A stretch of DNA of 63,998 bases, filler included, from Stramenopiles sp. TOSAG23-3 (taxonomy: Eukaryota), in assembly GCA_900128585.1 (NCBI GenBank). It is 4 parts of 4 records of this genome, joined end to end, with 100 filler letters (N's around TTAATTAATTAA, not from the genome) between each part and the next. Parts side by side here need not be neighbours in the genome. Positions count along the whole stretch, not along the records: positions 49,671 to 63,998 come from LT642572.1; 3 more parts are not named here. The stretch is one strand, 5' to 3'. The notes below the pieces were generated by a model, which saw only the letters and a list, made by a program, of their open reading frames with translations, was not told the DNA's origin and did not search any database. How positions within the stretch are numbered: the stretch's first letter is position 1; each line of letters opens with the position of its first letter. Position numbers and translations under genes: made by a program. Below are positions 40,294 through 63,773 of the stretch, piece after piece.

Positions 40294-43200
40294 TTAAAGG
40301 CCAGTAAATTTCGATCTCTTGTATTGGTCGTAAAACGATTCAAAAAATGAACGCCCGACGGCATCGTGCGTTGCAAATATTTGACGGGTTTCGTGATCGG
40401 TGCAAATACTAAATATAAAAAAAATCCCCTCTTTGATTTCTTGCTTGTTCCATATCCTCAAACCATACAGCTTCATTTGCCGGAGCACGTGTGCAACAAT
40501 ATAGGGCGCAAAATGCTTAAACACAGCGGCATGGTGGGATATCTCTTCGTACAATCGTCGCAAGCAGCGAACACAGGACAGAAAATCAGGGTGAATCCCG
40601 CCATCAGATGTGGAATTATTTTCAAAGAAATTAAAGATAACGTCCGTCAAGTCGCCTAAAATGGTCACGAGTTGCCCACAGCAGGCGTACACTGCACGGC
40701 TTCTATATTGCAAGGTCGACATGATCAGCGAGTACATGCTCTGTACGAACAATGTAAATTTTCCAGCAGTATTGGCATCCAAGCTGGCTTCGTTTAAAAA
40801 ATGTTTCCACGAGTGTATTGACATGCCCAAGACTGAGAACATAGATGATACGTGGGACGTCGTAAGTGGCATGTGCTTGGTCCGATTAACAACGATTTTA
40901 AACACATTAAAAACAGTCTCAAAGTATTCAAAAAATTGATTGTTGCGACCACAATAGGAAGCGAAATCTCCAAGCTCTCCGATTAAATCTACCAAATGGG
41001 TGGAAATGTACTGCCAGTGCCACTCTTCAGACAACGTTTCGAACAAGACCGCCATAGACTTTGCCGAAACAACTGCAGTAGATACCTTTTCCACATGACG
41101 GTTTTCTAGCAAAGTTTTCCTAAGCAATGCCATCAGTTGGTCAAATCGTTGCTCAGAGACTGCAGCTCTACCACAGTTTCGGACAGTATCATATAAAAAT
41201 TGATCTTGGACATTCGCCGATTCTTTCAAACAGTGATAAGCGCGAAAACATGCCAAGAGAATGGAGGAATACGTTTCGTTCGAGACGGTTCTGTATCGTG
41301 GCAAAGTCTTGGTTACCGACAACAAAAATGAGCACGTGGACTGTACTTTGAGGATTTGGGCACTGGAAACAACTACTTTCAGCAAGTTTGGCAAAAATGG
41401 CAGGCATTTCAGAGCTGGGCTTTCAGAGTCAACAACGGTCGATGCTACGTTGTAAAATTTCAAAACGCAAGCCACGAGCCGAAAGGCATCGTTAAGATTA
41501 TCGGCGTCCGACTTGGTATCGTTGCAAAATACATCGCTCAGCTGGTTAGCAAGAGCAGCGTCTAAACGCTCAATTGTTTTACCAATTTGATAACATTTAA
41601 TCTTTAAACCTTCCTCCTTTTTCCCCCTTGCACTGGCACCGTCGCTGCTGCTGTCGTCCCGTTTTTCGCGGCTGACCTTACTCACCTCACCCAAAATGAT
41701 CTCATTCGAGGTCCCCAAAATCAGAAGCAATGTTTCAACCGTAACACCATCGTTGGAAGTCATCATACTTTCGTAAGAAGAAACAAGGGGGGCAAACATC
41801 GTTGAAAAATACTCTTTGGCGAACTCCAACTCCTCATCGTCTGTACTCATGCGCTTGAGTAGTTGCGAAAGAAATTTGGACGCAAAAAGCTTTGCAAGGA
41901 AGGTACCGTGTTGCAAGTCATTGGGATCGCAAGACTCAGGAAAACGATAGTGGGCCTGAAAGACTGTTATGAGCTTCACAGGAGACGTGCTCTGAAGAAC
42001 AGTGCTCGGGCTTGCTTCTAGCAAGTTGAGAAGCAAGCGCAATGTTATTATCGTCAGACTTGCATCCTCGTGCAGCAGAGGATGGTTCAATATTTTAATG
42101 CTAGCCTTGCACATTTTCTGAATCGAGTCCACGGTCCAGTATTCCCACGGCATCGACGCAGCAAGCTTTAGTACTGCGATCTGTTGCTCCCTTTCAGCAA
42201 CTGAACTTTTAGCAAAACGCTTGGCTTTGTTTTTTACAAATTCGTTTACTCTGGTGCACAAAATCTTTAATGTAAACCCCCGAACTTGCTGGGACTCAAA
42301 GGCATCCGAGACAACTGTGCACGTCTGAGTCGAGGCCTTGTCGGCTTGGTTTACCAAGAACGAAATCCACCAATTTGCAAATTTTTCAATCGCCGCAGAA
42401 GAAGCGTAGCGAGATATAAGGAGGATGTTATCAAAGAGAATTTTGTAAGCCGTAGGCAGCGTGGTCGAACCGGTTGGAATTTTGCTACCACTGCAAAACT
42501 GTTTCACGATTCCCGTTGCAAGTTCATGAAGTTGGTCAACGCACTCTTCGTATTGTCGTCCATTTTTCATTGAAGCCGGTATCAGCATCGCCGCACGGTT
42601 CAGCCCCCCTATCGCCCTGACAGCGAACCGGCTACGCGCCTCAAGAGACGTAGACTCATCTAATTCACTAGAGCCATTCATTTTCCCTGCAATCGCAGCA
42701 AACAAATCAACCCACTTTTTGCCAGTGAACCTGTTTAGATCGTTTTCCCCCGTCAGAATAGTACTTTGAATTGGCAAATATCTTTGGCACCTGTCCGATA
42801 AGTACATAACCGAATCCAACATCGACAAGAGCATGTCGATCGGCAAATCATTCTTCGGGCTGTTTAATCGAGGCAAGAGAAGATCGTCACGGAAAGAGCA
42901 CGCCAGTTCATTAAGCAGCACTGCATTATGGTCCGCAACGACCGCAAATGAGCACATTTCATGCATTATCACAGACACAAGTAATGTCACTGCACACTTC
43001 GTTTCCAAATCATCTTCTCCCTTAAGGTATTCGTTCTGACACAACTTCCACAGGGCGGGAATTTGTGCGGGAAGGCAGCTGGACATCACCTGCCCGAGGC
43101 TAAGGCGAAACTGCCCTTGAGTAAATAGAAACAAGGAGGAACTTTGCGCACTAGCTGAGCATTTGCGAGTTATGTCAAAAAAGAGATTAAATCCACAGCT

Positions 43201-44733
43201 TAAGTCTCGAAGTTTCCCATAAAGCTTTAACACAGAAACTAAAAAACCAAGACAGAAAGGTACTACTTTGGTTCCCATACGATCGCACCTAGTTTGTCCG
43301 CACACAAAAATTTCAACAAGGCTGTCTTCCACCAGCCCGTGGTTTATATTGAGAAATGTGGAGTACAAAAGGAATTCCATCTCGACGTTCTTCTCCGTCA
43401 ATGTAAAACTATGTGGAGACGACATGCTTAGATACGATTTGTGGTGCTGTGCAAAAAACCTCTTCAATATTTCAAACTGCGGTTTGGCAAAGTTTTGCTC
43501 ACCGTACAGGTATGCTCCACTCTCACGCATTGCTTCCAAAAGTTCATTTTGGGACTCATGGGCACGATATTGCGCGGATAAGCGTTCCTCAGCGTTTGGT
43601 ATGCATTCAAGGTATTGAAAATATGCTGCATTGTACAGCTCTACAAAAAAGCGAAACTCAATGCTGATTTCAGCCGCCAGATTCCCGTTCCCAGGCCGCT
43701 TCAAGTTCGTCTGATTCTCTTTCGTTTCCTTTGTTCGCTTCCACTCTTGCAAGAAAAGTTTAAATAACGAGCTGTTTCTCCATGCAAACCCATCGCAATA
43801 AACTTTTTGCAATAGGCTTGAGACGTAGCTACTTGTGACTCTTTTTCTTTTTTTCGACGCTTTACCCTTCGTTTGGTCCGTACTATTTGGTTGCGCTACC
43901 AAAGCGTTCTCCTTTACAAAATGGTCAACTACATGGAAAGACGAAGGGTAGGACGACAAGTGCGATCGAGAAAATAGCGCATTGGTGATCACTTCGCCGA
44001 GAATCTTTTTCAATTTCTGTACTCCCTCAATGTTTGGAATCAAACTCATTATCGGGCCGAGCAAATGATCTACAAAAGTAGTGAAAGTCTTTTTCTTATT
44101 TGCTTGCTCGTATACAAGGTTATTCAAAATGGCAAACATGGTGTGCAGCAAAGCTATGGAGGGCTCATCCTCCACCACGTTACTCCCTTTCTTTAGACTA
44201 GTGAATACCACATTGGCGACTTTCGCAAAAGCCAAAAAATTAGGGCGAAAGTTCACCTTTCGCTCCAAAAACATGCTTGTAAGAACATTCGATATCTCTG
44301 ACTTCGTTCCTAACCCAGCGTCGCACGACAAAGTTACCGCTTTCAAGACTGTCTCAGCTGCGGCTTTTGGTAAAGCTGAAACCACTTTCTTTTCGCCTCC
44401 CTCAGGTTCAGACCCAGTCAAAGCTCGGTTGATTATATTCCAAATAAGAGGCTCACTTGCATATGTTTCAAGATTATGACACGACCACTTCAATATTTCG
44501 TCATTCAACAAAGATATTGCAACGTATTCGACGCATTCCGCACGCCCTTGAACGTCGCACAATATTTTTTCGATGGACCCTAAAGGAACAGGATGTGTCG
44601 CTATCGCGGTTGTCCACTCGGCCCCCAAAGCCGCGGCAGTCAACGTAGTTTGATCCATTCGCAAAAACAGGTAAAACTTTCGCAGCCCAACTATTCTTTC
44701 CTTTTCCACCACGGTATCAATATAATGATTCAT
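40294..44733 (-). CDS. URB2: Nucleolar pre-ribosomal protein URB2/Npa2-like
   Basis: Long helical-repeat protein. The C-terminus LRRLYEEI...KHFAPYIV...GIFFIFSICT...FYDQYK..KFTG matches the Urb2 domain pattern. Confidence 0.8.
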   Translation of the reverse strand: MNHYIDTVVEKERIVGLRKFYLFLRMDQTTLTAAALGAEWTTAIATHPVPLGSIEKILCDVQGRAECVEYVAISLLNDEILKWSCHNLETYASEPLIWNIINRALTGSEPEGGEKKVVSALPKAAAETVLKAVTLSCDAGLGTKSEISNVLTSMFLERKVNFRPNFLAFAKVANVVFTSLKKGSNVVEDEPSIALLHTMFAILNNLVYEQANKKKTFTTFVDHLLGPIMSLIPNIEGVQKLKKILGEVITNALFSRSHLSSYPSSFHVVDHFVKENALVAQPNSTDQTKGKASKKRKRVTSSYVSSLLQKVYCDGFAWRNSSLFKLFLQEWKRTKETKENQTNLKRPGNGNLAAEISIEFRFFVELYNAAYFQYLECIPNAEERLSAQYRAHESQNELLEAMRESGAYLYGEQNFAKPQFEILKRFFAQHHKSYLSMSSPHSFTLTEKNVEMEFLLYSTFLNINHGLVEDSLVEIFVCGQTRCDRMGTKVVPFCLGFLVSVLKLYGKLRDLSCGFNLFFDITRKCSASAQSSSLFLFTQGQFRLSLGQVMSSCLPAQIPALWKLCQNEYLKGEDDLETKCAVTLLVSVIMHEMCSFAVVADHNAVLLNELACSFRDDLLLPRLNSPKNDLPIDMLLSMLDSVMYLSDRCQRYLPIQSTILTGENDLNRFTGKKWVDLFAAIAGKMNGSSELDESTSLEARSRFAVRAIGGLNRAAMLIPASMKNGRQYEECVDQLHELATGIVKQFCSGSKIPTGSTTLPTAYKILFDNILLISRYASSAAIEKFANWWISFLVNQADKASTQTCTVVSDAFESQQVRGFTLKILCTRVNEFVKNKAKRFAKSSVAEREQQIAVLKLAASMPWEYWTVDSIQKMCKASIKILNHPLLHEDASLTIITLRLLLNLLEASPSTVLQSTSPVKLITVFQAHYRFPESCDPNDLQHGTFLAKLFASKFLSQLLKRMSTDDEELEFAKEYFSTMFAPLVSSYESMMTSNDGVTVETLLLILGTSNEIILGEVSKVSREKRDDSSSDGASARGKKEEGLKIKCYQIGKTIERLDAALANQLSDVFCNDTKSDADNLNDAFRLVACVLKFYNVASTVVDSESPALKCLPFLPNLLKVVVSSAQILKVQSTCSFLLSVTKTLPRYRTVSNETYSSILLACFRAYHCLKESANVQDQFLYDTVRNCGRAAVSEQRFDQLMALLRKTLLENRHVEKVSTAVVSAKSMAVLFETLSEEWHWQYISTHLVDLIGELGDFASYCGRNNQFFEYFETVFNVFKIVVNRTKHMPLTTSHVSSMFSVLGMSIHSWKHFLNEASLDANTAGKFTLFVQSMYSLIMSTLQYRSRAVYACCGQLVTILGDLTDVIFNFFENNSTSDGGIHPDFLSCVRCLRRLYEEISHHAAVFKHFAPYIVAHVLRQMKLYGLRIWNKQEIKEGIFFIFSICTDHETRQIFATHDAVGRSFFESFYDQYKRSKFTGL

Positions 44734-49249: not shown

Positions 49250-49570
49250 ATGGAGAAAACGCTCCCTCAGCGCCTTCCTCCAACGGCCACGGCCAAACGG
49301 GCAGAAGAGGGCGTACTCCAGGTAATGCAAATGTGCAGTTTTATGGGTACTTGTTCGAAATTGTTTTTGAAGAGAAAGGCATATGCGTTCAAACAATGGC
49401 ACAGGAACACATATCTTCAAACACTAGTCGATAGAGAAAAACAGCGGAACGTGCAGCGCCAGCTCGAATCTTTTATCCTTTACGTCTGCCAAGAAGTAAG
49501 GGACGTACTGGAATCGGATAGGTGCTCGTTGTGGATGTTAGACGATGGCAAGCTCTATGCGCAGCAGCCG
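49250..49570 (+). CDS. GAF-domain protein (PDE-like), 3'-truncated at gap
   Basis: VCQEVRDVLESDRCSLWMLDDGKLY is the start of a GAF domain (ADRCSLFL pattern). The start codon is uncertain. Confidence 0.7.
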
Positions 49571-49670: not shown

Positions 49671-49691
49671 ATAATTTTCCACAGCTCAATC

Positions 49692-50947
49692 ATGAGCGAT
49701 GATGTCAAGTCTTGGGGTGCCCAGTCGAAGGGTGGGAGGGGGGGGGGGGGGGACGTTCGGCCAAAGTAGCGCCGGAGAAAAAGACCCAAGTACACTTGCG
49801 CCAAGCCTTTGACATGATTGACAATGACGGTTCTGGGTTCATCGATGGTGAGCATCTTGCCTTGCTGCTCCGACTCCAAGGGATTGATGTCACGAAAAAT
49901 GATGTCATGCATATTATTCGGCATTACCACCGGCAGACGTCCCAAACGAAGGTCGGGGAAGATGTCTTGTCGTTTGAGGAATTCTGCGCGATCATGGACG
50001 ATGGAAACGACGGCAATGTCAACGTTTCGATGGAGGAGTTGACTCGTCGCTTCGCAAACAAGTCGGTGCACCACCTGACGCTCCTGTCTCAAATGGGAGA
50101 ACCGCTCTGGAAACAGCAAGAGAGGGAGTCCGGCCTTCTTGGTATAAAAAAGGGTATGAACGCACGGATGGAGCTTGGCAAATTGGCGGATGGGACCGTC
50201 GCTCAAGGGATTATCTTGGTGTTGATTGTAGTGGACGTCGTCGTGGTCATCATGGAGCTGCTCTTGGCGGCGATAATCTGCCTCGAACCCAGCCAGGCCC
50301 ACCGACGGCTGAGGATGTCCGGAATGGCCGACGCGGCCAAGAGCCTGGCACGGATGCTTGCGGGCACCACGGTGCCCGCTTCGGACGATATACCGGAGTT
50401 TTGTATAGATTGCATGACGCTTCAAATAGAGGTCGAGAACGTTCTGCACTGGGTATCCGTCAGCATCTTGTTTGCTTTTGCGTTTCAAATATTTTTGTTG
50501 ATGGTAGCGTACGGCTTGAGATTCTTCAAGAACCCTTTCTTTGTCCTAGATTTTATTGTCGTCGTCGTCGCGTTGGTGTTGGAGCTCGCGTTTCATGTTA
50601 GGGAGGGTGCCTTGTTTGCGATCCTGTTGTCGTGGAGAGTTATCCGGATAATACACGGGTTTTACACGACCATAGAAATCCAGCACAAGGAAAACCACAA
50701 AAAGATCCACAACACTATCATGGCCCACGCGACGACGACGACGGCCCATCTGGAGCAGTTGAAAGGGGAGATGACCCAAAGCTTGAGGCAAGTTGTGATG
50801 GTGCTGCAGGATGACTCCAAGGAAATCGATCGTGCCAGACTCTTGGAGCTTATAGAGAAAGACATCCTGGACATGCAGCAAGACATCAAGCTGATGGAGG
50901 ACGATATGACAGAATCCGCGAAGAGAGAGGACTTGGCAACATTCTAG
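49692..50947 (+). CDS. HVCN1: Hv1-like voltage-sensor-only (proton) channel with N-terminal EF-hands; apparent frameshift in G15 run
   Basis: AFDMIDNDGSGFID EF-hand; S1 LIVVDVVVVIMELLL; S2 LHWVSVSIL; S3 VLDFIVVVV; S4 SWRVIRIIHG; C-terminal coiled coil. ATG 49692 is out of frame across the G-run at 49738-49752. Confidence 0.85.
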
Positions 50948-52766: not shown

Positions 52767-53738
52767 TTACTTCTTCGTATCGACAGGCAAATCTGACATA
52801 CCATACTCGGTCCAAGACCCGTCGAATAGCTTTGTGTTTTCAGTTCGTCCCACTATTTCCAGAGCGGCAAGAATGATGCACGCTGTCACTCCCGACCCGC
52901 ATGACGTGATAATTGGCCTACTGGTGTCTTGGATAAGCCCTTCAGGCGCGGCCTGATCCAGCCGAACGGTAAGTAAATCGGTATCCAATAGCCCGCTTCC
53001 ATCTTCCGTCAGCAAGCTTTGGAACGGAACGTTCACACTTCCCGGAATGTGACCCGTCCGAACGCCTTCGCGTGGCTCGTCCACGTCTCCGTTGAAACGT
53101 GGGCCCCCCCTCGCATCGAAAATGGTCGATTTTGTGTCATTTAACTTCGACTGATTCATGTCGCTCAAGGATGCAAGTCGACTATGTTCTGCAACGGCAC
53201 GAAAAGATCCCCCGAGTGCTTGCGGACCGTTTGTCTCATCGCCTGCAATAGTCTCAAAATTCTGGCCTTTCCATGCCGGCAGCCCGCCGTCCAAGATATA
53301 AACGTTTCGGTGGCCAAAATATTTGAAGAGCCACCAGCACCGTGCAGAGCTAAATAGCCCGACTGAGTCGTACGTGACAACGGTTGATTCGTTTGTAACC
53401 CCGAATTCTCTCGCTGCCTCTTGGAAAAATTCAGCCGTGGGCAAAGTGTGGGGCAGTGGGGAGGAGCTATCGGAAATGCTGTCAATGTCGAAAAACTGGG
53501 CAGTTGGTATTCTGTCCTGCATAAATTCTTCCCTCGCATTTCGGTCAGATCCTGGCATGTGCCAAGAACTGTCAAAGACAACAATATCGTTTTCACCTTT
53601 ATCTAATTTAGCAGCAAGTTCTGCCGGTTTCACCAGAACATTACCGCGCCCAGCCGACGCCGCATTCGAGAGACCTGCTCGCCCAACCCCCCGACCTGAC
53701 CTTTTTGAAACGGTCCGAGCAACTAAAAGGAGCACCAT
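52767..53738 (-). CDS. MPST: 3-mercaptopyruvate/thiosulfate sulfurtransferase (two-domain rhodanese), probably mitochondrial
   Basis: FDSSWHMP, SARCWW..KYFGH, LDGGLPAW, DAR...RF.G, GHIPGS, CGSGVTA and DGSWTEY. Arg-rich presequence. Confidence 0.95.
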   Translation of the reverse strand: MVLLLVARTVSKRSGRGVGRAGLSNAASAGRGNVLVKPAELAAKLDKGENDIVVFDSSWHMPGSDRNAREEFMQDRIPTAQFFDIDSISDSSSPLPHTLPTAEFFQEAAREFGVTNESTVVTYDSVGLFSSARCWWLFKYFGHRNVYILDGGLPAWKGQNFETIAGDETNGPQALGGSFRAVAEHSRLASLSDMNQSKLNDTKSTIFDARGGPRFNGDVDEPREGVRTGHIPGSVNVPFQSLLTEDGSGLLDTDLLTVRLDQAAPEGLIQDTSRPIITSCGSGVTACIILAALEIVGRTENTKLFDGSWTEYGMSDLPVDTKK

Positions 53739-54238: not shown

Positions 54239-55825
54239 ATGGTTTCAGATGCCACCCCTTTGAGTTTAAGCTACTCAAACCACCATGTAGAGAAGAATAT
54301 CATACCGTTAATGATGTCCTCTTTTTACTCGAACCGACGGTGCATTCCTAACCTTGTTAAGCGGAGCCGCCAGTCCGTGGTAGAGTCGAAGTTTTACATC
54401 GGCGTTGGGTTTGAATTGGCCGAGCTCAACCGAGCCTACCACCGCGTTAAACACGCGATTTGTAGTGGGAGAGAGATTTTTGCTTCTCCCACCCATCGCG
54501 TATTCTATTGCACACGCAGCGGCAGCGATGACGAAGGCTCTGCGGACCGGTGGCATATAGAGCGCAAGAGCGACGGTAAGTGTGTTGCGTTCGCTTGTGA
54601 CCACCGTGGCGTAGAGTTAATCGCCTGGAAGTGCAAGGACAACCAAAGCTGGGCTGTTTCGATGGGGCGTTTGCAGTCCACAACTTCACAGGCAAAATTT
54701 GAAGTCGAGTGCTCTTCTGTCCCCCGGGCTTTGCGAAAACGAACCATCCAAGGATTTCACGGCGGCTGCAACAAGGTTTACCAAGAGCACCGGATCGCAG
54801 GGTTTGTGGTGTTTGTAGAGAAAGGCACAATTGAGGCCTTCGGCCTACGCTTAATCCGCCAGCTGTGTTTGGATCTGCAAGAGCTCGCACGCGTGATTCC
54901 AGCGCTCTGGTTTGCCAAAATGCGCGTGGGGTTACGAATATGGGTAAACAGGGCTTCGCTATTGTTTGGAAAGCCACAGCACGGGGCGTGCCATCACTCA
55001 TCTGAAGGTTGGCTTCTAGAGCATGAAAACATGGTCGAAAAAGTCCACAGCGTTGAGATCCACGATGCCCACCATTACTTGACCGATCGTGGCTGCTGGT
55101 CTGGCATGTTGCTACACGAGTGTTCTCATTGGGTGCACCATGAAGCAAACATTGTGGAAGGGGCCGTTGGGTGGACCCGTTTGCCTGCGGCAACCATTTC
55201 GTTCGTTGCAGCAGAGTCGGGGGCGGTCCAGGCGAGGGGGTTTCCTTCCCTGGGTATGAACGGGGTGTACATTGAAACTGGAAAGTTGTGCAGCGAAAGA
55301 CCAATCTATAGCAATGGAGTCTTCTACTTGTACCGCACGGACAGTTGCAACCACGACGATAGCAAGCGCGCAGATCGATGGCATGTCGAGATTCGACCAT
55401 TGGAGAGAGGCAAAGCGCGGGTACTAGCGTACGCCTGTGGTGGCGCGGATCTGCGCACTTGCAATGGTCATTGGAACGCCCAGAACAATTCTAGCATAGA
55501 CGTGCGCATCACCGAAGCCCTCGAAGCGGCCGTTGCCTTGGGAATATACAATTCAAACCAAGAACGGGCAAATAGCCGTGGCCGCACGAGTGTCCTCCAG
55601 GAACAAGCTTATTGCATGACTGATTATAAGGAGTACTTTGCTGTTTGTTCGACTGCATTCTTCTCGAGTAGGCATTTCTTCAATGATTACTACCCGTTCA
55701 CACATGGCGAGCTCAGGGAGTACGACAGCTGTGGGTATCAAATGTGCGAACAGGTCTGGGGCATTAAGGGTGAGGATGTCCCAACACGCCACGAGGTGCC
55801 GATTGCGTACCCAGAAAGGGCGTGA
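54239..55825 (+). CDS. HExxH zinc metallopeptidase-like protein with duplicated accessory domain
   Basis: LLHECSHWVH, AYCMTDYKEYFA and NDYYPF...ELREYD, resembling bacterial lethal-factor/MtfA-like gluzincins. Confidence 0.8.
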   Translation: MVSDATPLSLSYSNHHVEKNIIPLMMSSFYSNRRCIPNLVKRSRQSVVESKFYIGVGFELAELNRAYHRVKHAICSGREIFASPTHRVFYCTRSGSDDEGSADRWHIERKSDGKCVAFACDHRGVELIAWKCKDNQSWAVSMGRLQSTTSQAKFEVECSSVPRALRKRTIQGFHGGCNKVYQEHRIAGFVVFVEKGTIEAFGLRLIRQLCLDLQELARVIPALWFAKMRVGLRIWVNRASLLFGKPQHGACHHSSEGWLLEHENMVEKVHSVEIHDAHHYLTDRGCWSGMLLHECSHWVHHEANIVEGAVGWTRLPAATISFVAAESGAVQARGFPSLGMNGVYIETGKLCSERPIYSNGVFYLYRTDSCNHDDSKRADRWHVEIRPLERGKARVLAYACGGADLRTCNGHWNAQNNSSIDVRITEALEAAVALGIYNSNQERANSRGRTSVLQEQAYCMTDYKEYFAVCSTAFFSSRHFFNDYYPFTHGELREYDSCGYQMCEQVWGIKGEDVPTRHEVPIAYPERA

Positions 55826-56451
55826 TTAGTGTTTTTGGAAAAAAGATGTGGAGTACTCCTCGTATTTTTTAAAACAAATAAGTAATTCTTAGAATGTCTA
55901 AATCTAGATTTCAGTTCGCATAATAATACATTCATTAAATATTATAACAGAAGAAGAAGAAGAGAGAGAAAAGAAGAAAAAGAGGAAAGAAGAAAGAAGA
56001 ACAATAGGAGGAGATGAGGAGATCTAAACTTAAAAATAAAATAATGCACAAACTTAGTATTAAATAGGAAAATGATAAAAGTATACAATCAATTTAGTTG
56101 TGGTAATTATATATATAAATAGTATAGACTATGTAGTATATACATATAAATAAGGAAGGGGAGTCCATATAATAAAGGAGTTATATATTTAACTAGTATG
56201 TAATAGTAAAGAGTAAAAATGGGAACGACAGCAGAGGGAGGGAGGGGATGATGGAGGGAGGAAGAAGAAGAATATGATCATTTTATAAAAAATTAGAGCT
56301 TCATGGAAGATAAAGAAATGTATGTAATGATGATTATTGACGTGAGTGTGTGTGTGTGTGTGTTCAGGCATTTAAATGTGCATGAAACAGAGGGAAGGGA
56401 AGGAAACATAAGGCGGTGGGCCAATTTGGAGTTTATTTGCAGCACGTAATC

Positions 56452-59400
56452 ATGGTTTTAGAGTCCAGCAAAGAGGCCGCGACCAACGCGAGGGAACTCA
56501 GCGAAAAATCGGAGGCAGCGAGGGAGGACCCTGGGATGATTGCAGCGCTTTTGGGGTGCGGTATCCTGTACAAGTTCGGGCTCAAGCTGATGCCCCAGGA
56601 GAAGCGAGACCAGTTCAAGGCATGGAAGAAAAAGAAAAGGAAAGAATTTGAGAAATGGAAAAAGAACAACAAGACAAAGGTGCAAATGTGGCAAACCGTT
56701 GGGCTCTTGGCGGGCGGTCTCTTCACGTACAGCGATCTTGCAACAGACATTCTGGCCATCCAGTCCTTGTACAGCAGCGGCGAGGACGGCTGGGCTTTGG
56801 CAATGGTTTGCACACTAATTTTCCCAAGCATTTTGGCAATGGGAGGAATTTTGAAGTACGTGTACGACAACCACATCGAATACTTCAGGTGTGGGAATTG
56901 GTACTACATTTTCGCCTTGCCATTTTTTCACGCTGGGTTGGACTTGACTATGCCGTCCTTGATGATAATCGACCTGGTGTTCAAGACGAATTGGGGGAAA
57001 CGAAAAGCGAGGGGCTGGAAAGTGCGCAACACCGAGCTGAATACAATCCTAGGGGAGTTCTCCATGTTCCTCGACGCTTACAAGGCCGTTAGGACGGTGA
57101 CGGAAGCAGCCTTCGAGGCCTTTCCCCAAGTCCTGATTCAGTACATTTACGCAACCCGAAAGGACGGGTACAACTTTCAAGTCATGCTGTCCCTGTTCGT
57201 CTCCGTGTTCAATATTGTCCTCCAAGTCATCATGGTGTTCCTCTCGTCCATAAATTCCGGAAAGTCGATGAAAAATACCATCAAGGACTTGGTATCCTTG
57301 GGCGGCGGCCTGCCCACGGCTACGTTGGAAGGCAACAAGCAGAAGCGCCTTGTCATCCCTCACCGGCTAAACAAATACCAAATCAAGGCGTTCTGCAAGC
57401 TGTTGGAGGCCAACACGTCCGTGGAGGAACTGGACCTGACAATAGCAGGGTTGAAGGACGAGGGGTGCGCGCTGCTTGCGGACGTGATAAAGAAACGAAG
57501 GGAAAACACCGTTAAAGACCAAGCGTTTCCACTGCGGAAATTGGTATTGAACTGGAGCACCCTTCCGGGGAAGGAAGGGACTAAGAAACTTGCCGTAGAG
57601 TGGCACAAAAACATAGAAGAATTGATGAAGGTCGAACCGGAAGATAAGCTTGCTTTAAGCATCCGTTCCTCTGCAAGCAACGACAGCCTCGACGATTCGC
57701 TCGGCGCGTCAACGAGGAGTTTCGAAGACATGGCCGACACGACCATTCTGCTGGAGCCGCTGGTTTGGTCCGAGGTCAAATTGGCGTTTCCGGGAACGGC
57801 CGATTTGATCGCGGAAGGCCACCCGGTTGTTCCCGAAGAGCTCGTCTACGAGCGCATCCTGACCTCGGACGAGCTGGTCGCATTGGCAAAGGGCATGGAG
57901 CAAAACAAAACCGTGAAAGTTCTGAACTTGCCGAGCAACACGAAGAACGACAAAGCCGGGGTCCAGCACCTGGCGGCCATGGTAGAGAAAAACGTGACGC
58001 TGAAGCAGTTACACCTGCACAACATGAGGCTGGAAAACAGCGACGCGACGCTGTTTGGACATTCCCTGTCCCAGATCGAACAGATGAAGAAAAAGAACGT
58101 AGCGCATGCCATGGAACTCTTGGATTTGGACTACACTGATATTAGACCAATAAAGGAGGGATTTGAGAAACTCCTGATGTCCAACCACCCGACCTTGCCA
58201 GATACGTTGGACTACTGCGAGGCAAAGGCGAAAACTGAAGCAATGAAGCGGCAAGAAAGGCGCGTCTCTTATTGTTGTGGAATTTTGTCCGCGCCCCACA
58301 AGAGCAACAACTTGAAGGTGCATCCGGGAGGGGGTAGGGCAAAGTCGGTAAAGTCCCAGCACAAGTTGAAGCCGGAAGAAATGGTCCATTTGGCGCGGGG
58401 GTTGGGGAGCGTAGAAGACCACAGCGTTTCAAAGCTCATCCTCCCGTACAAAGAGTGCACCTCAGATGCTGTCCTAACCACTTTAGCCAAACAAATGATT
58501 GCAATAAACAAGACGCTCGAAGTGCGCTGGCAGGACAACGACAGCCTTTCTAGGCTAGACCGGCGTGAAATGAACGAAGCGAACCTGGCGGACGATGTGG
58601 GACCCGGAACATTTCGGCAATGGCACGAGTTTCCATTGTCAAACGGCTTTGCCGCGATGTTGAAGACAAACCAAGAAAAGACGCTGCCGTCCGAGCTGTT
58701 GTACAATTTGCGCGAAAAAACGTTGACGGAAGCAGACGTAAGGTTTATTTTTGAAGGATTAAAAACCAACACCACGGTTAAGAGGATCGATTTGACGACC
58801 AGCAAACTGACAAACGCAATGCTCAATAGCATTGCAGACGCGTTGAAGCCCGGCGGTGTCGGCGCAATGCGAACAAACCAAAACATTTCTGTGGTAGCAA
58901 AGTGGAATGAAATCGAACCGCTTGGGGGTGGTTTTGCCCAGTTTCTGATGACGAACCAGGCCAATTCTGTGCCACAGAAGCTGTCGTTTTCAAGGACTTT
59001 GGGACAAGACGAAATAATGAACTTGATGCAAGGAGTGGGAAAATGCCATGTCCTGAGCGAAGTAGACATCTGCAAGACGCCGTTGACAGACAAAGCCGCA
59101 GGCATGATTGCAGGCGCGTTGAGCGCCAACAAAAAAGTTAAAATCGTCTGCGAGTGGGACAAAATCGATACCATAGGGCCAGGTTTCGAAGCGCTTCTCA
59201 AGTGCCAGCAGAGAGTGTCGTTGCCCACAGAACTTGGGTTTGCGCGCCCCGTCACGGAAAACGAAATGGCCTACCTGACCAGGGGGATAGCCATCAACAG
59301 GACCATCGTATCTTTGGACTTGACAAAGTCCGAGAACATAAGCCAACAAACGGCCGAGAACATTGCCAGCATGATACACAACGCAGCCAATGACCTAAGC

Positions 59401-60900
59401 AACCATGAGACAAAGAACTGGGGCAACGCCGATGAGCTACCTACAGAAACCGAAGGGAACGACAAGAACGACAAGGCCGAAACCACCGACGTGTCCAACG
59501 GCCACCCTGTCCTAAGAACGTTGGCATTGCACTGGGAATCCTTCTCACCTGCGTCCGTTTCCAATCTAATCAGGGTAAACCAGGAAATTTTATGCCCCCC
59601 CAAAAGCCAATTGGACTTTTCAAAGCTCCCCGAAGAAGAATGGACCGTAGCGGCTGCCCGCGGACTGTCGGAGGCCCTCCAAAGCAATGACTATGTAATG
59701 GTCGTAGAGTTAAATTGGGACACTGTCCCAATCGATGCGATCGGGCAACTGCTCCTGGCCGGCCACGACGACTTTGCGTATTGCAAACCCACAAACTTGA
59801 ATTTGCTGACAAAGGGCGACGTCGATGTGGGGGAGAGCGGCATACCAGGATTGTACTCTGCAGAAGAACTTACGCATTTTGCAGAGGGCTTGAGCCACAA
59901 TGCCACATTGAAGGAATGCATCGCTGCCATTAACACAGACTGGGAGTACTTTCCTATCGAAGGCCTTGGGCACATCATAGCCGCCAACCACAAAGCGGGA
60001 CCGAAACGCCTTAACCTGAGCGGGCGCACTATAGACCAAGCAGCAGTGAAATCTCTCCAAAATGGGCTCAACCCTACACAAAAGACCGCCGGATCGACAC
60101 AAGCGATAAACACAGCAATGAGCACCTCGTCATTGGAGTGGCTGAACCTTGACTGGCTACGAGTTGAGGCACCGTCCACACCACTGGAAGAGGCTACCAC
60201 AGAAAAGTTTTTTCGGTCGAAACATGGGTCATTGACCCATTACGACGGGTTCTCTGTAGAATTGATCGATCTCGGGTGGGAAAAAATCCGGCAAATGAAT
60301 GTTGATTTAAACAAGGGCGGAAAGTTTCCCTGGGGGACTACAATATTGAAGGAAATTAGTCTTCTGCTTCGGACGAATGACTTGCGGCTCCCAAAGTTCC
60401 TAGATCTGAGCAATAGGAAATCAGAGAAAATGTGGGTAAGGGGAAAAGCAGAAAAAGAAGGAGAATACAGGAAACTGGTCAAGAGCTTCAAGACCAACAC
60501 AACGGTAGAAGAGTTGAACATGTCATCGAACAAGTTGGACTCTGATGCCATCAAAATCCTGTTCGAAGTTTTGGACCAGAGGGACATTTTTATGAAAGAG
60601 AACAAGGCACAAAATAATCTAAAGATTTTAAACCTGGCAAACAACGATTTGGGTACAAAGTCTGCTGCAGAGCAAGTCAAAGAGTACGTGTACACCACAA
60701 AGTTAGACATATTGGACATTTCGACTTCAACGATAACGAAAGAGGCAAGGAAAATCTTGAAACAGGCCAAACACATCACCAATGAAAAGTTTCAGCTGAG
60801 GATAAATGACAAAAGTAGCATTAACCACGTCGGAACGGGAGGGTATCGCATCGGTGCTTCTTTGGAAAATGAGAAAAAGGATGTTCGCGAATGGCAATGA
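56452..60900 (+). CDS. XK-related membrane domain fused to RNI-like leucine-rich repeats
   Basis: SDLATDILA, EAAFEAFPQVLIQ.Y and SLFVSVFNI are XK-like. Many N.TV..L.L repeats follow (NTSVEELDL, NKTVKVLNL, NTTVKRIDL, NRTIVSLDL, NTTVEELNM). Confidence 0.8.
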   Translation: MVLESSKEAATNARELSEKSEAAREDPGMIAALLGCGILYKFGLKLMPQEKRDQFKAWKKKKRKEFEKWKKNNKTKVQMWQTVGLLAGGLFTYSDLATDILAIQSLYSSGEDGWALAMVCTLIFPSILAMGGILKYVYDNHIEYFRCGNWYYIFALPFFHAGLDLTMPSLMIIDLVFKTNWGKRKARGWKVRNTELNTILGEFSMFLDAYKAVRTVTEAAFEAFPQVLIQYIYATRKDGYNFQVMLSLFVSVFNIVLQVIMVFLSSINSGKSMKNTIKDLVSLGGGLPTATLEGNKQKRLVIPHRLNKYQIKAFCKLLEANTSVEELDLTIAGLKDEGCALLADVIKKRRENTVKDQAFPLRKLVLNWSTLPGKEGTKKLAVEWHKNIEELMKVEPEDKLALSIRSSASNDSLDDSLGASTRSFEDMADTTILLEPLVWSEVKLAFPGTADLIAEGHPVVPEELVYERILTSDELVALAKGMEQNKTVKVLNLPSNTKNDKAGVQHLAAMVEKNVTLKQLHLHNMRLENSDATLFGHSLSQIEQMKKKNVAHAMELLDLDYTDIRPIKEGFEKLLMSNHPTLPDTLDYCEAKAKTEAMKRQERRVSYCCGILSAPHKSNNLKVHPGGGRAKSVKSQHKLKPEEMVHLARGLGSVEDHSVSKLILPYKECTSDAVLTTLAKQMIAINKTLEVRWQDNDSLSRLDRREMNEANLADDVGPGTFRQWHEFPLSNGFAAMLKTNQEKTLPSELLYNLREKTLTEADVRFIFEGLKTNTTVKRIDLTTSKLTNAMLNSIADALKPGGVGAMRTNQNISVVAKWNEIEPLGGGFAQFLMTNQANSVPQKLSFSRTLGQDEIMNLMQGVGKCHVLSEVDICKTPLTDKAAGMIAGALSANKKVKIVCEWDKIDTIGPGFEALLKCQQRVSLPTELGFARPVTENEMAYLTRGIAINRTIVSLDLTKSENISQQTAENIASMIHNAANDLSNHETKNWGNADELPTETEGNDKNDKAETTDVSNGHPVLRTLALHWESFSPASVSNLIRVNQEILCPPKSQLDFSKLPEEEWTVAAARGLSEALQSNDYVMVVELNWDTVPIDAIGQLLLAGHDDFAYCKPTNLNLLTKGDVDVGESGIPGLYSAEELTHFAEGLSHNATLKECIAAINTDWEYFPIEGLGHIIAANHKAGPKRLNLSGRTIDQAAVKSLQNGLNPTQKTAGSTQAINTAMSTSSLEWLNLDWLRVEAPSTPLEEATTEKFFRSKHGSLTHYDGFSVELIDLGWEKIRQMNVDLNKGGKFPWGTTILKEISLLLRTNDLRLPKFLDLSNRKSEKMWVRGKAEKEGEYRKLVKSFKTNTTVEELNMSSNKLDSDAIKILFEVLDQRDIFMKENKAQNNLKILNLANNDLGTKSAAEQVKEYVYTTKLDILDISTSTITKEARKILKQAKHITNEKFQLRINDKSSINHVGTGGYRIGASLENEKKDVREWQ

Positions 60901-61463: not shown

Positions 61464-63773
61464 ATGGACGGAGAAGGGAGTGGCAGTAACTATGCTGAAT
61501 CGTTCGAGGGTGGAAAAACCCGTGTACTTATGCACCGGAGTGGATCGGTGGAGGTTCAACAGTTTCCTTTTCGGGAAAGCGACGACGACGGTGATGAAAT
61601 AATTGGCAGCAGAGCGGCGGAGTCCGTCCAGGACGGCGGCGGCAGCGTTGGTAGCAGGGCCAGCCGCGGGGCGCAGCACGGGCAAGGGGCTGCGTTGTCC
61701 ACGGCGGAACTGTACAGCCGTTCCCACCCCCCGGCACAGCACAACACGCCCACCTTGCTGTTCACCGGGACTGCCTCGAACCAGTCCAGCACGTACGGGG
61801 TCGGAGCGAACAACAGCCGCGCGGTGCTCTCCGCACTGCGCGCCTTGCAGGACAAAATTCGCAACTTGGAGGGCGAGCGGAGCCAGTACGCAAAGCAGTG
61901 CAGCAAGCTGGAGGAAAGCCTGCAGGAGTATCGGAATCAGATCGGGGACGAGAAGAAGAGGGTGGAGGAGGAGCACTCGAAGCGCCACCGCGAGTTGTCG
62001 TTGGCGTCGAAGCAGACCCACGAGTTAGAAGTGTCTGCGGCAAGGTCGGAGGAGCGCGAGGTCGCGATGAAGAAAGAGCTGGACCAGAAGTCGCACGTCC
62101 TGGAAAAGGTGGAGAAGGACCACGGGGCATTGGTGGAAAAGTTCCGTTCGGAGACGACCCGGTTGACGACAAAGTTGGAAGAAGCAGCAAGGGATTTTAC
62201 GGCGCAGCTGATCAAGAAAGACGCGAGCCTTGAGTCGGAGCGCGCCCAGCGTCACGCCCTGGAAATCAAGGTAGCAGACGCCAACGAGTTTATCGCGCAG
62301 TGTGTCGATTTGAACGAAAAGCTTGTCGAGGAAAACAAGAACATTGTACAGAAAAACAGCAAGCTGGCCGAGCAGTTGGTGAGGCTCGAGCGCGACCTGA
62401 TCAAGGCGCGGAACCCCCCGGGGCCCGCCCCAGAGCCGGGCCGGAGGAACAAGCTGGGAACCGGTCGACCGCGGCGGTCCAAGCGCACGGGACGGGCAAA
62501 GCCTTCCACGCGACGAAAGGGCAGGGCGAAACGCCTGGACCGGCCCACCGCGTCCTCTGCCCGGCGAAGCGTTAAAAACAGCCCAGAAGCAGACCGGGAC
62601 GGCGACACGTCGAACCACGACCGCCACCTGAACTTGAAAGAGCAAATGAGGCGCGCCAACTTGGGCAAAGATCCGCCTTTTATGCCGAGCGGAAATGCAA
62701 ACGCACCGGACCGGAACGTGTACTCGATCACGCAACGGCGGCTGGGCGACTCCAAGGCCTTCGGGGAAGTCCCTATGAAGAGGCGCCCCGACCGCACCCC
62801 CCGCCGCCACCGCAGCCCACCAAAGCACCGTGACTCCCAGCACGTGCTGTCGCACTCTCAGCGGGCCTCTCCTCCTGCCCCGGCAGCCCCCTCGGTGCTC
62901 GCTAGTTCCGGGGGGAGCAATATGAGGGTACTCTTGCACCGGAGTGGGTCTGTCGAGGTCCAACAATCCGGCCCTGCCATGGCCACTGCGCCCCCAGTCC
63001 CCGTGTCTGTTGGCAGCGACAAGCTGGTGCCGAACGTGGAGGTGTCGATAGGAAACAGGACGGTCGGGCTGGTTGGGAGCCCCCAAACCAGCGCCCGGGC
63101 CGCCCCGGAGTCCCCGCCGATGCCGAAGGCCTTGTCCTTCAACGTTCGCCCTGATTTCTCGGCTTCCGCCTCCTCCTTCAACGCCAGAGTCGGGGAGAGC
63201 CAGGCGTCCGCTGGTGGGAAAGGCTTGACGAAGGTCCTGGCGGACATGGAGGCAGAGTACGCCGACCTGCACGCCAGGTACCGGAGCATGCAGAAATCGG
63301 TCGAGCGGGCGAACAGGAGCAATTTAAACGTCAACAAGGATGCGTTAGACAGCGCGATGGCTGCGCTGGTGGCAAAGCTTCAGTCAAAGTCGGAGCAATT
63401 GATGATCCTTCGAAGACAGGTTTACCTCGCAACCAACCAAAAGAACATCGCCCAGGATCACCCCCCACCCCCAAGGGCGATCAGCCCGGACAGTAGTGTA
63501 ATAGGAATAAACGTAGACGGCGGCGGCGAACGCGTCGCGGGGGAAAGCTTCGTCGTCGACGACGACGTGGGGGCGCGGCGGGGAGAAGGGAGTAGTCGGG
63601 GCCGAAGCAGAAGCCGGAGCAGGAGTCGAAGCAGAAGCCGGAGCAGGAGTCGAAGCAGAAGCCGAAGCAGAAGCCCGGCAGGAATATATAGTCCTGTGCG
63701 CGAGAGAGAGGCCTTTGAGAGGAAGAAAGTAGCCCTGAAGCTCTTGCGACAGTACAAAGAGACGGTCATTTAA
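61464..63773 (+). CDS. CEP57: Centrosomal protein CEP57/translokin-like
   Basis: NSRAVLSALRALQDKIRNLEGER (centrosome-localisation domain), PFMPSG...NVYS..Q (PINC-like) and LTKVLADMEAEY...LVAKLQSKSEQL (microtubule-binding domain). Confidence 0.85.
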   Translation: MDGEGSGSNYAESFEGGKTRVLMHRSGSVEVQQFPFRESDDDGDEIIGSRAAESVQDGGGSVGSRASRGAQHGQGAALSTAELYSRSHPPAQHNTPTLLFTGTASNQSSTYGVGANNSRAVLSALRALQDKIRNLEGERSQYAKQCSKLEESLQEYRNQIGDEKKRVEEEHSKRHRELSLASKQTHELEVSAARSEEREVAMKKELDQKSHVLEKVEKDHGALVEKFRSETTRLTTKLEEAARDFTAQLIKKDASLESERAQRHALEIKVADANEFIAQCVDLNEKLVEENKNIVQKNSKLAEQLVRLERDLIKARNPPGPAPEPGRRNKLGTGRPRRSKRTGRAKPSTRRKGRAKRLDRPTASSARRSVKNSPEADRDGDTSNHDRHLNLKEQMRRANLGKDPPFMPSGNANAPDRNVYSITQRRLGDSKAFGEVPMKRRPDRTPRRHRSPPKHRDSQHVLSHSQRASPPAPAAPSVLASSGGSNMRVLLHRSGSVEVQQSGPAMATAPPVPVSVGSDKLVPNVEVSIGNRTVGLVGSPQTSARAAPESPPMPKALSFNVRPDFSASASSFNARVGESQASAGGKGLTKVLADMEAEYADLHARYRSMQKSVERANRSNLNVNKDALDSAMAALVAKLQSKSEQLMILRRQVYLATNQKNIAQDHPPPPRAISPDSSVIGINVDGGGERVAGESFVVDDDVGARRGEGSSRGRSRSRSRSRSRSRSRSRSRSRSRSPAGIYSPVREREAFERKKVALKLLRQYKETVI
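63593..63675 (+). repeat. Coding minisatellite giving an RS dipeptide tract
   Basis: 24-nt unit gaagcagaagccggagcaggagtc, encoding (SR)n. Confidence 0.9.

Follow-up and report, generated by a model that had tools for sequence, protein, structure and literature searches.

A putative Hv-type proton-channel subunit with an N-terminal EF-hand pair and an R1-less voltage sensor in a stramenopile

Overview

The stretch of DNA analysed here (the window; 63,998 nt from Stramenopiles sp. TOSAG23-3) consists of four contigs joined end to end by N linkers. One of these contigs carries a gene whose main open reading frame (positions 49712-50947, + strand, as are all its features below) runs as a single stop-free frame of 411 codons through an EF-hand pair, a helical linker, S0 to S4 of a pore-less voltage-sensor domain (VSD) of the Hv type, and C-terminal helices. 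Besides this order of domains, the protein keeps the equivalents of D112, F150, W207, R2 and R3 of human Hv1, it has lost R1 and E153 together, and its EF-hand pair and linker are conserved among relatives.

We put at about even the chances that the product of the gene is an Hv-type proton-channel subunit, from a protist lineage without R1, carrying an N-terminal EF-hand pair through which Ca2+ would control most members of the family. The parts of this reading vary in confidence. It is likely that the protein conducts protons. Modulation by Ca2+ is slightly favoured for those family members whose EF-hands are canonical, and is unlikely for the TOSAG23-3 copy itself. By analogy, the best reading of this copy is a weakly voltage-dependent, leak-prone proton channel resembling AcHv3 of Aplysia californica, probably one that has become desensitised to Ca2+ within a family that is probably gated by it. 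To judge from their sequences, the TOSAG23-3 protein is the least convincing Ca2+ sensor of these EF-hand-bearing Hv proteins (EF-Hv), and it is the family that is the interesting object.

Locus and reading frame

The channel gene sits on contig G000:C169, which begins at window position 49671. The first-pass annotation gave the gene as 49692-50947. Its end holds, but in the assembly its start does not: the ATG at 49692, only 21 nt from the contig end, is out of frame with the main reading frame, which opens at 49712 with the TTG from which we number residues. Translation from this ATG ends after 25 codons, the poly-G run at 49738-49752 being 15 G long; 13 or 16 G would open the frame, giving a protein of 417 or 418 aa. 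We compared four sequencing runs over the gene, two of them RNA. One contig of run X3 is 2 G shorter and reads through to 417 aa, while a second, 44-nt X3 contig spans the G run ungapped with 2 mismatches; run X4 stops at the G run, and neither RNA run extends to it. The 15-G run is likely to be a homopolymer error or a length polymorphism, and a short intron, which is also mechanically possible at this place, is a possible substitute for both. The true start is probably the ATG at 49692, with an N-terminal peptide encoded up to 49737: P0048, an independent gene model, begins at the same Met, and the N-terminal motif is resembled in P0002 and P0017.

Apart from the G run, contigs of X3 tile the whole gene with 6 substitutions, of which 3 are silent, 3 conservative and none in EF loop 1. 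Contigs from both RNA runs match parts of the reading frame, none of them bridging the EF-hands to S1, and they do no more than hint at transcription of this copy. The sequencing runs that contain the gene are mostly marine metagenomes.

The start of a GAF-like domain (49250-49570, E 0.049), truncated where the preceding contig ends, lies upstream of the gene in the window. We considered and rejected a GAF-EF-Hv fusion, since the channel contig begins only at 49671 and the fragment is therefore on a different contig, beyond an N linker.

The voltage-sensor domain

The Pfam Ion_trans profile matches residues 240-317 (E 3.5e-6) in the same frame as the EF-hand pair and with no pore domain behind it, in agreement with the first-pass description of an EF-hand region ahead of a VSD-only channel. 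Among PDB sequences, the mouse Hv1 chimera 3wkv matches best (E 8e-10); human Hv1 (5oqk) matches with E 6.5e-6 for the whole reading frame and 8.2e-7 for the VSD alone. Human residue numbers were counted along the 5oqk alignment from anchor positions that we take to be correct. The same numbering of D112, F150, E153, D174, D185, R205, W207, R208 and R211 appears in the parts of PMC5938591 and PMC10377628 that we used.

On this alignment, S1 (50195-50272) contains the selectivity Asp, D175 (50234-50236; D112 in human Hv1), and E182 (E119). S2 (50429-50521) contains H246 (H140), F256 (F150) and Q259 (50486-50488), which replaces E153, while S3 (50534-50590) contains D280 (D174) and E291 in place of D185. 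S4 (50609-50671) has the form LxWRxxRxxH: L306 (50627-50629) stands in the place of R1 (R205), W308, R309 and R312 are retained (W207, R208 and R211), and H315 occupies the position of N214. Thus, the first-pass residue assignments were accurate, both for the seven positions given as kept (D112, E119, F150, D174, W207, R208 and R211) and for the three given as changed (R205, E153 and N214). Because R1 is missing from the signature RxWRxxR, the sequence identifies EF-Hv as a variant of Hv and not as canonical Hv1. The His three residues after R3 is an extension found in protists, for which RxWRxxRxxH is described as the norm (PMC10377628, in part). The motif of mollusc Hv3, xPWRxxR, differs in that here R1 is lost but Ser, not Pro, precedes the Trp.

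A structure model built from a 33-sequence alignment (pLDDT 78, pTM 0.63; an earlier one from 9 sequences was poor, with pTM 0.35) places the EF-hand pair first, then two helices of the linker, S0 and four membrane helices, with long helices at the C-terminus. Hydropathy, this model and fold matches to VSDs agree on a four-helix VSD without an S5-S6 pore. For residues 147-323 of the model, the Ci-VSP sensor is matched with Z 12.9 and an rmsd of 2.8 across 127 aa, and 3wkv with Z 10.6 and an rmsd of 4.1 across 139 aa; such matches alone do not tell Hv from voltage-sensing phosphatases (VSP). For neither model did Foldseek return a match with E of 0.001 or less, there is a weak fold match to AtTPC1 (E 2.8e-3), and the ESM Atlas gave sub-0.8 leads only, to larger channels. 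After S4 come hydrophilic cytoplasmic helices and then the stop (50672-50947), according to hydropathy and the model, which places long helices at 300-367 and 371-410. These might form a coiled coil; their heptad bias is weak, with hydrophobic residues at 11 of 26 a/d places against 4-10 for the other registers. The homodimer prediction scored 0.01, which speaks neither for nor against pairing. Pfam detects no catalytic domain in the reading frame.

The EF-hand pair and linker

The EF-hand pair (residues 24-96; 49781-49999) matches EF-hand_7 over residues 28-95 (E 3.8e-9; 37.2 bits against a cut-off of 30), and after 3wkv the PDB matches of the N-terminal domain are to troponin C, centrins and calmodulins. 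A pair of helix-loop-helix folds is present according to Pfam, the PDB matches and the model. Loop 1 (49820-49855) has the ligands at positions 1, 3, 5 and 9 as well as Gly6 (D37, D39, S41, D45 and G42). Its position 12, where a canonical EF-hand has Glu or Asp, is His48 (49853-49855), and loop 2 is degenerate, with no Ca2+ ligands; both facts were already noted in the first-pass annotation. The His is the same in run X3 and in records P0047 and P0050, and is therefore not a sequencing error. Loss of the bidentate Glu at position 12 generally abolishes high-affinity Ca2+ binding by EF-hands. Since this Glu and loop 2 are both lost, the TOSAG23-3 copy most likely has little or no capacity to bind Ca2+.

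The 34 EF-bearing proteins found in our sample of Hv-like relatives (drawn from the best 150 of 890 matches; see below) have Glu at position 12 in 27 cases, Asp in 6 and His only in the TOSAG23-3 protein. Loop 1 is canonical in 21 of the 34 and non-canonical in 13. Many relatives, e.g., P0055, P0057, P0060 and P0063, keep an acidic second loop of the DxD type, which is lost in the TOSAG23-3 protein and its nearest kin. Between the EF-hand pair and S1, a helical linker and S0 (50030-50188) are conserved: in the alignment of 33 EF-bearing proteins, F114 is retained in 29, P131 in 30 and D160, just after the linker, in 32. This conservation fits a coupling of the EF-hand pair to the sensor, which may be what the linker provides.

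A family of EF-hand-bearing Hv proteins

We assembled 158 proteins, namely the query, 10 close relatives and 147 from the best 150 of 890 matches. Of these, 145 with a match to S2-S4 were retained and 13 dropped. The sample over-represents the query's kin, because matches were ranked by likeness to the query, and many of its rows are fragments. An EF-hand pair lies upstream of the VSD in 34 of the 145 (best 150 of 890), including the query. The selectivity Asp is present in 105 of the 107 proteins from this best-150-of-890 sample in which S1 was found. His214 occurs in 137 of the 145 taken from the same best 150 of 890; N214H, which the first-pass annotation lists among the changed residues, is the norm in protists.

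The states of R1 and E153 agree in 132 of 137 proteins, with 53 keeping both and 79 lacking both; 5 are discordant. Among proteins with S1 found, again from the best 150 of 890, an upstream EF-hand pair is seen in 31 of 64 without R1 versus 0 of 40 with it. We repeated this test with a generic loop pattern because the EF profile had been trained on the EF-Hv family; the untrained pattern is present in 24 of 85 R1-less and 1 of 57 R1-keeping proteins, the one being P0129. The profile's match in P0084 is a training artefact, and this protein was scored by hand as EF-less. Some full-length R1-less proteins, e.g., P0089, P0117 and P0176, have no EF-hands, so that a weakened sensor can exist without an EF domain. 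P0129 is itself of interest as a tandem Hv-like protein of two VSDs, which keeps R1 and has a canonical-looking EF-hand pair between the repeats; it is apparently an independent fusion of EF-hands and Hv.

In a tree of 103 rows, a single branch separates the R1-less proteins from the others (60 rows, SH-aLRT 97), and all 30 EF-bearing rows fall within a subset of 43 (SH-aLRT 95, trait columns included). With the columns for R1 and E153 removed, support for the R1-less side is 91/84, which falls short of the threshold set by the tool, and the EF subset loses its resolution; we therefore do not claim a single origin of the EF-bearing clade. We also discarded the idea that R1 and E153 co-evolved repeatedly: only 3 independent pairs are available (sign test, p 0.5), so their match reflects mostly shared descent, with few events.

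Within the alignment of EF-bearing proteins, D175 is invariant (33/33), and W308, R309, R312 and H315 are found in 30 of 31. These relatives are 25-52% identical to the TOSAG23-3 protein. EF-hands and VSD occur together on the transcriptome-derived proteins P0053, P0054 and P0063. P0053 comes from a dinoflagellate transcriptome; P0054, P0063 and the cluster of P0066 come from MMETSP transcriptomes, and a Florenciella fragment falls within P0063's cluster, all of which might derive from culture contaminants. On this sequence evidence the fusion is a trait of a conserved family that includes transcriptome-derived members. No longer fused relative (721-2055 aa) appeared among 7999 scored candidates, which is weak evidence. 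Two single-protein searches found no second Hv in the TOSAG23-3 genome, which is incomplete, so that one is a lower bound.

The extracytoplasmic S1-S2 loop (50273-50428) contains C190, C231, C234 and an RRL motif (50303-50311), as the first-pass annotation had pointed out. These features are not peculiar to the protein: by eye, Cys and RRL also occur in this loop in canonical RxWRxxR protist Hv sequences in the supplement of PMC10377628, and RRL or RRF is found in only 15 of 33 loops of the EF-bearing family. For the same reason we gave no weight to N214H, K157L, the Cys/RRL loop or an aromatic residue at E171 as distinguishing marks, since they are common in rows that keep R1 or in canonical protist Hv. 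Cys-flanked extracytoplasmic RRL loops are shared by the TOSAG23-3 protein, P0009 and P0055, and P0009 has a second insertion of this type in S3-S4; they might be held by disulfides and cleaved by a protease.

Comparison with described channels

Searches of open-access literature gave no description of an EF-hand-bearing Hv, in line with the first-pass statement that characterised Hv channels are not known to have a Ca2+-binding domain; work on dinoflagellate and algal Hv diversity (Kigundu 2018, Taylor 2012) might mention the group. A term search of the main text and supplement of PMC10377628 did not find "EF-hand". However, two Choanocystis sequences in its Fig. S1 (GDKX01062209 and GDKX01034169) have, by eye, an EF-like N-terminus, Gln at 153 and an S4 without R1, and probably belong to the same EF-Hv family. 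In the portions of that paper that we consulted, they are remarked on for their long termini alone, and no function is reported. Members of the family have therefore already been listed as Hv with these features unremarked. The idea that Kottmeier 2022 described an Hv with a Ca2+-binding domain was unsupported, the term being absent from the text and supplement of PMC9171652.

With canonical Hv1 (5oqk, 3wkv, kHv1, EhHv1) the TOSAG23-3 protein shares the pore-less four-helix VSD, the residues D112, E119, H140, F150 and D174, an acid at 185 and, in S4, W207, R208 and R211, while its His at 214 is as in protist Hv. It differs from them in R205 (Leu), E153 (Gln) and the EF-hand pair with conserved linker ahead of S0.

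AcHv3 is the functional model that fits weak voltage dependence and proton leak best. Its R1 is also Leu, it keeps the selectivity Asp and the Trp, and it too has a long S1-S2 loop; according to the parts of PMC10911540 consulted, it is proton selective, has a voltage dependence of ~60 mV per e-fold, leaks protons and is proposed to act in internal membranes. Hv3 is also the named exception to R1 conservation in the corresponding part of PMC10377628. AcHv3 differs in its LPWRxxR motif with Pro, its 35-aa N-terminus, which leaves no room for an EF-hand pair, its 299-aa loop and its 535-aa C-terminus (PMC10911540, in part). The loss of R1 may be convergent in the two proteins. Moreover, the analogy may overstate the leak, because AcHv3 has the extra Pro and because single Arg-to-Ala mutants of mammalian Hv1 are reported, in the same parts of PMC10911540, to show no leak.

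Plant TPC1 is a precedent for Ca2+ control of a voltage-gated channel by a cytosolic EF-hand domain (PMC13095418, in part), and it is also the weak fold match mentioned above. TPC1 differs in consisting of two 6-TM repeats, in having a central pore and in that its EF domain acts on S6, whereas the TOSAG23-3 protein has four TM helices, no pore domain and Hv-specific residues.

A possible mechanism and its alternatives

Hv1 mutants are reported in which voltage dependence falls (R205A) or activation moves in the negative direction (R1Q; both PMC10377628), and neutralisation of E153 promotes opening (PMC5938591). From these mutants and AcHv3, we would expect the loss of one gating charge and one inner counter-charge to make the closed state less stable, giving a shallow voltage dependence and either opening at more negative voltage or a proton leak. 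In most family members, cytosolic Ca2+ might bind the EF-hand pair, which might then act via the conserved linker helix on S0/S1 or on the helix after S4, supplying control that voltage no longer would, so that Ca2+ signals drive proton flux. In the TOSAG23-3 copy the pair may serve a structural purpose or act as a sensor module of an altered kind. Of the first-pass proposal of a Ca2+-modulated, weakly voltage-dependent channel, the second half is thus backed by the AcHv3 and R1/E153 mutant precedents. The first half is plausible for the family and is not supported for the TOSAG23-3 copy, whose loop 2 is gone and whose His12 is the sole one among the 34 EF-bearing rows.

The outcome of such a mechanism could be pH control, or charge compensation for a Ca2+-activated NADPH oxidase. 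The latter is one possible, speculative role, raised because the same genome contains an EF-hand NADPH-oxidase-like gene of NOX5/RBOH-type architecture (G000:C6000; L002:1-2013) and no second Hv was found; the co-occurrence is unlinked and proves nothing. Three further NAD_binding_6 matches are present in the genome.

A stronger form of the reading is possible, which we hold tentatively. The family, which would be widespread among protists, with dinoflagellate, stramenopile and centrohelid sources, would be gated directly by Ca2+, having traded the R1/E153 pair for a calmodulin-like lobe that makes Ca2+ the main gate; the His12 loop of TOSAG23-3 would then have been silenced, or retuned to H+ or Zn2+. 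A rather unlikely variant is that loop 1 of the TOSAG23-3 copy still binds Ca2+ (through its intact positions 1, 3, 5 and 9, with Glu11 or water standing in for Glu12) and modulates the channel, or that His12 confers a response to pH or Zn2+. The residues D37, D39, S41, G42, I44 and D45 and the EF core F33, F88 and F91 do correspond to the family consensus, and the His is genuine, being shared by X3, P0047 and P0050. Against this, position 12 is acidic in 33 of the 34 EF-bearing proteins, loop 2 is degenerate, and Glu12 loss generally ends high-affinity binding. At the other extreme, the EF-hand pair might serve family-wide in folding, trafficking or dimerisation, with no Ca2+ control, in a constitutive or organellar proton leak channel. 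EF-less R1-less members, the 13 non-canonical first loops and the proposed location of AcHv3 in internal membranes (PMC10911540, in part) are compatible with this idea. We nevertheless consider it improbable: canonical first loops in 21 of 34 proteins and acidic second loops in many, across relatives only 25-52% identical to the TOSAG23-3 protein, suggest selection on the Ca2+ ligands.

The protein could also be a voltage sensor that does not conduct, of the TMEM266/HVRP1 or VSP type, with the VSD as sensor or anchor and the EF-hand pair and C-terminal helices as the output. The loss of a gating charge and E153 would suit such a protein, and fold alone does not separate Hv from VSP. The residues for proton conduction are, however, kept family-wide (D175 in 33/33; W308, R309, R312 and H315 in 30/31), there is no catalytic domain, VSP are without the S1 acid and the Trp (PMC10377628, in part) and AcHv3 conducts without R1 (PMC10911540, in part), all of which makes this unlikely. 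It is very improbable that the gene is an artefact, whether a pseudogene disrupted by the G run, a chimera of the assembly or part of some larger channel of, e.g., the TPC type (EF-hands followed by VSD2). The frameshift at 49738-49752, the position of the gene 21 nt from a contig end and the weak AtTPC1 match (E 2.8e-3) would allow it, but one X3 contig restores the frame, the whole gene is covered by X3 contigs that differ by 6 substitutions (3 silent and 3 conservative), the architecture recurs in 33 other rows and S4 leads through hydrophilic helices to a stop with no pore. The 7999 candidates without a relative of 721-2055 aa weakly point the same way.

In the literature covered, partly in excerpt, characterised Hv channels are gated by voltage and the pH gradient, and none has a built-in Ca2+ sensor. 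If the reading of an EF-hand-controlled Hv channel is true, abundant marine plankton would have a direct coupling of Ca2+ signals to pH and membrane voltage. The EF-Hv family also amounts to a natural experiment in how Hv is gated. Because R1 and E153 are lost together, double-mutant cycles can test the counter-charge model, and members whose EF loops are intact or degenerate are ready-made controls.

Additional observations

P0101, P0108 and P0136 are single-chain tandem Hv-like proteins with two RxWRxxRxxH motifs, i.e., natural concatenated dimers. P0155 is a 2281-aa EML-type WD40 protein with a canonical Hv domain at its end, which may be a fusion or a gene-calling artefact. Within the window, a 1494-aa reading frame at 56416-60900 has an XK-related membrane domain (E 2.7e-5) followed, by eye, by leucine-rich-repeat-like sequence. 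The unrelated neighbours include a Cep57-like protein (61464-63773), a two-domain rhodanese/sulfurtransferase (52767-53738), Urb2 (40294-44733) and an M90-like peptidase (54239-55825).
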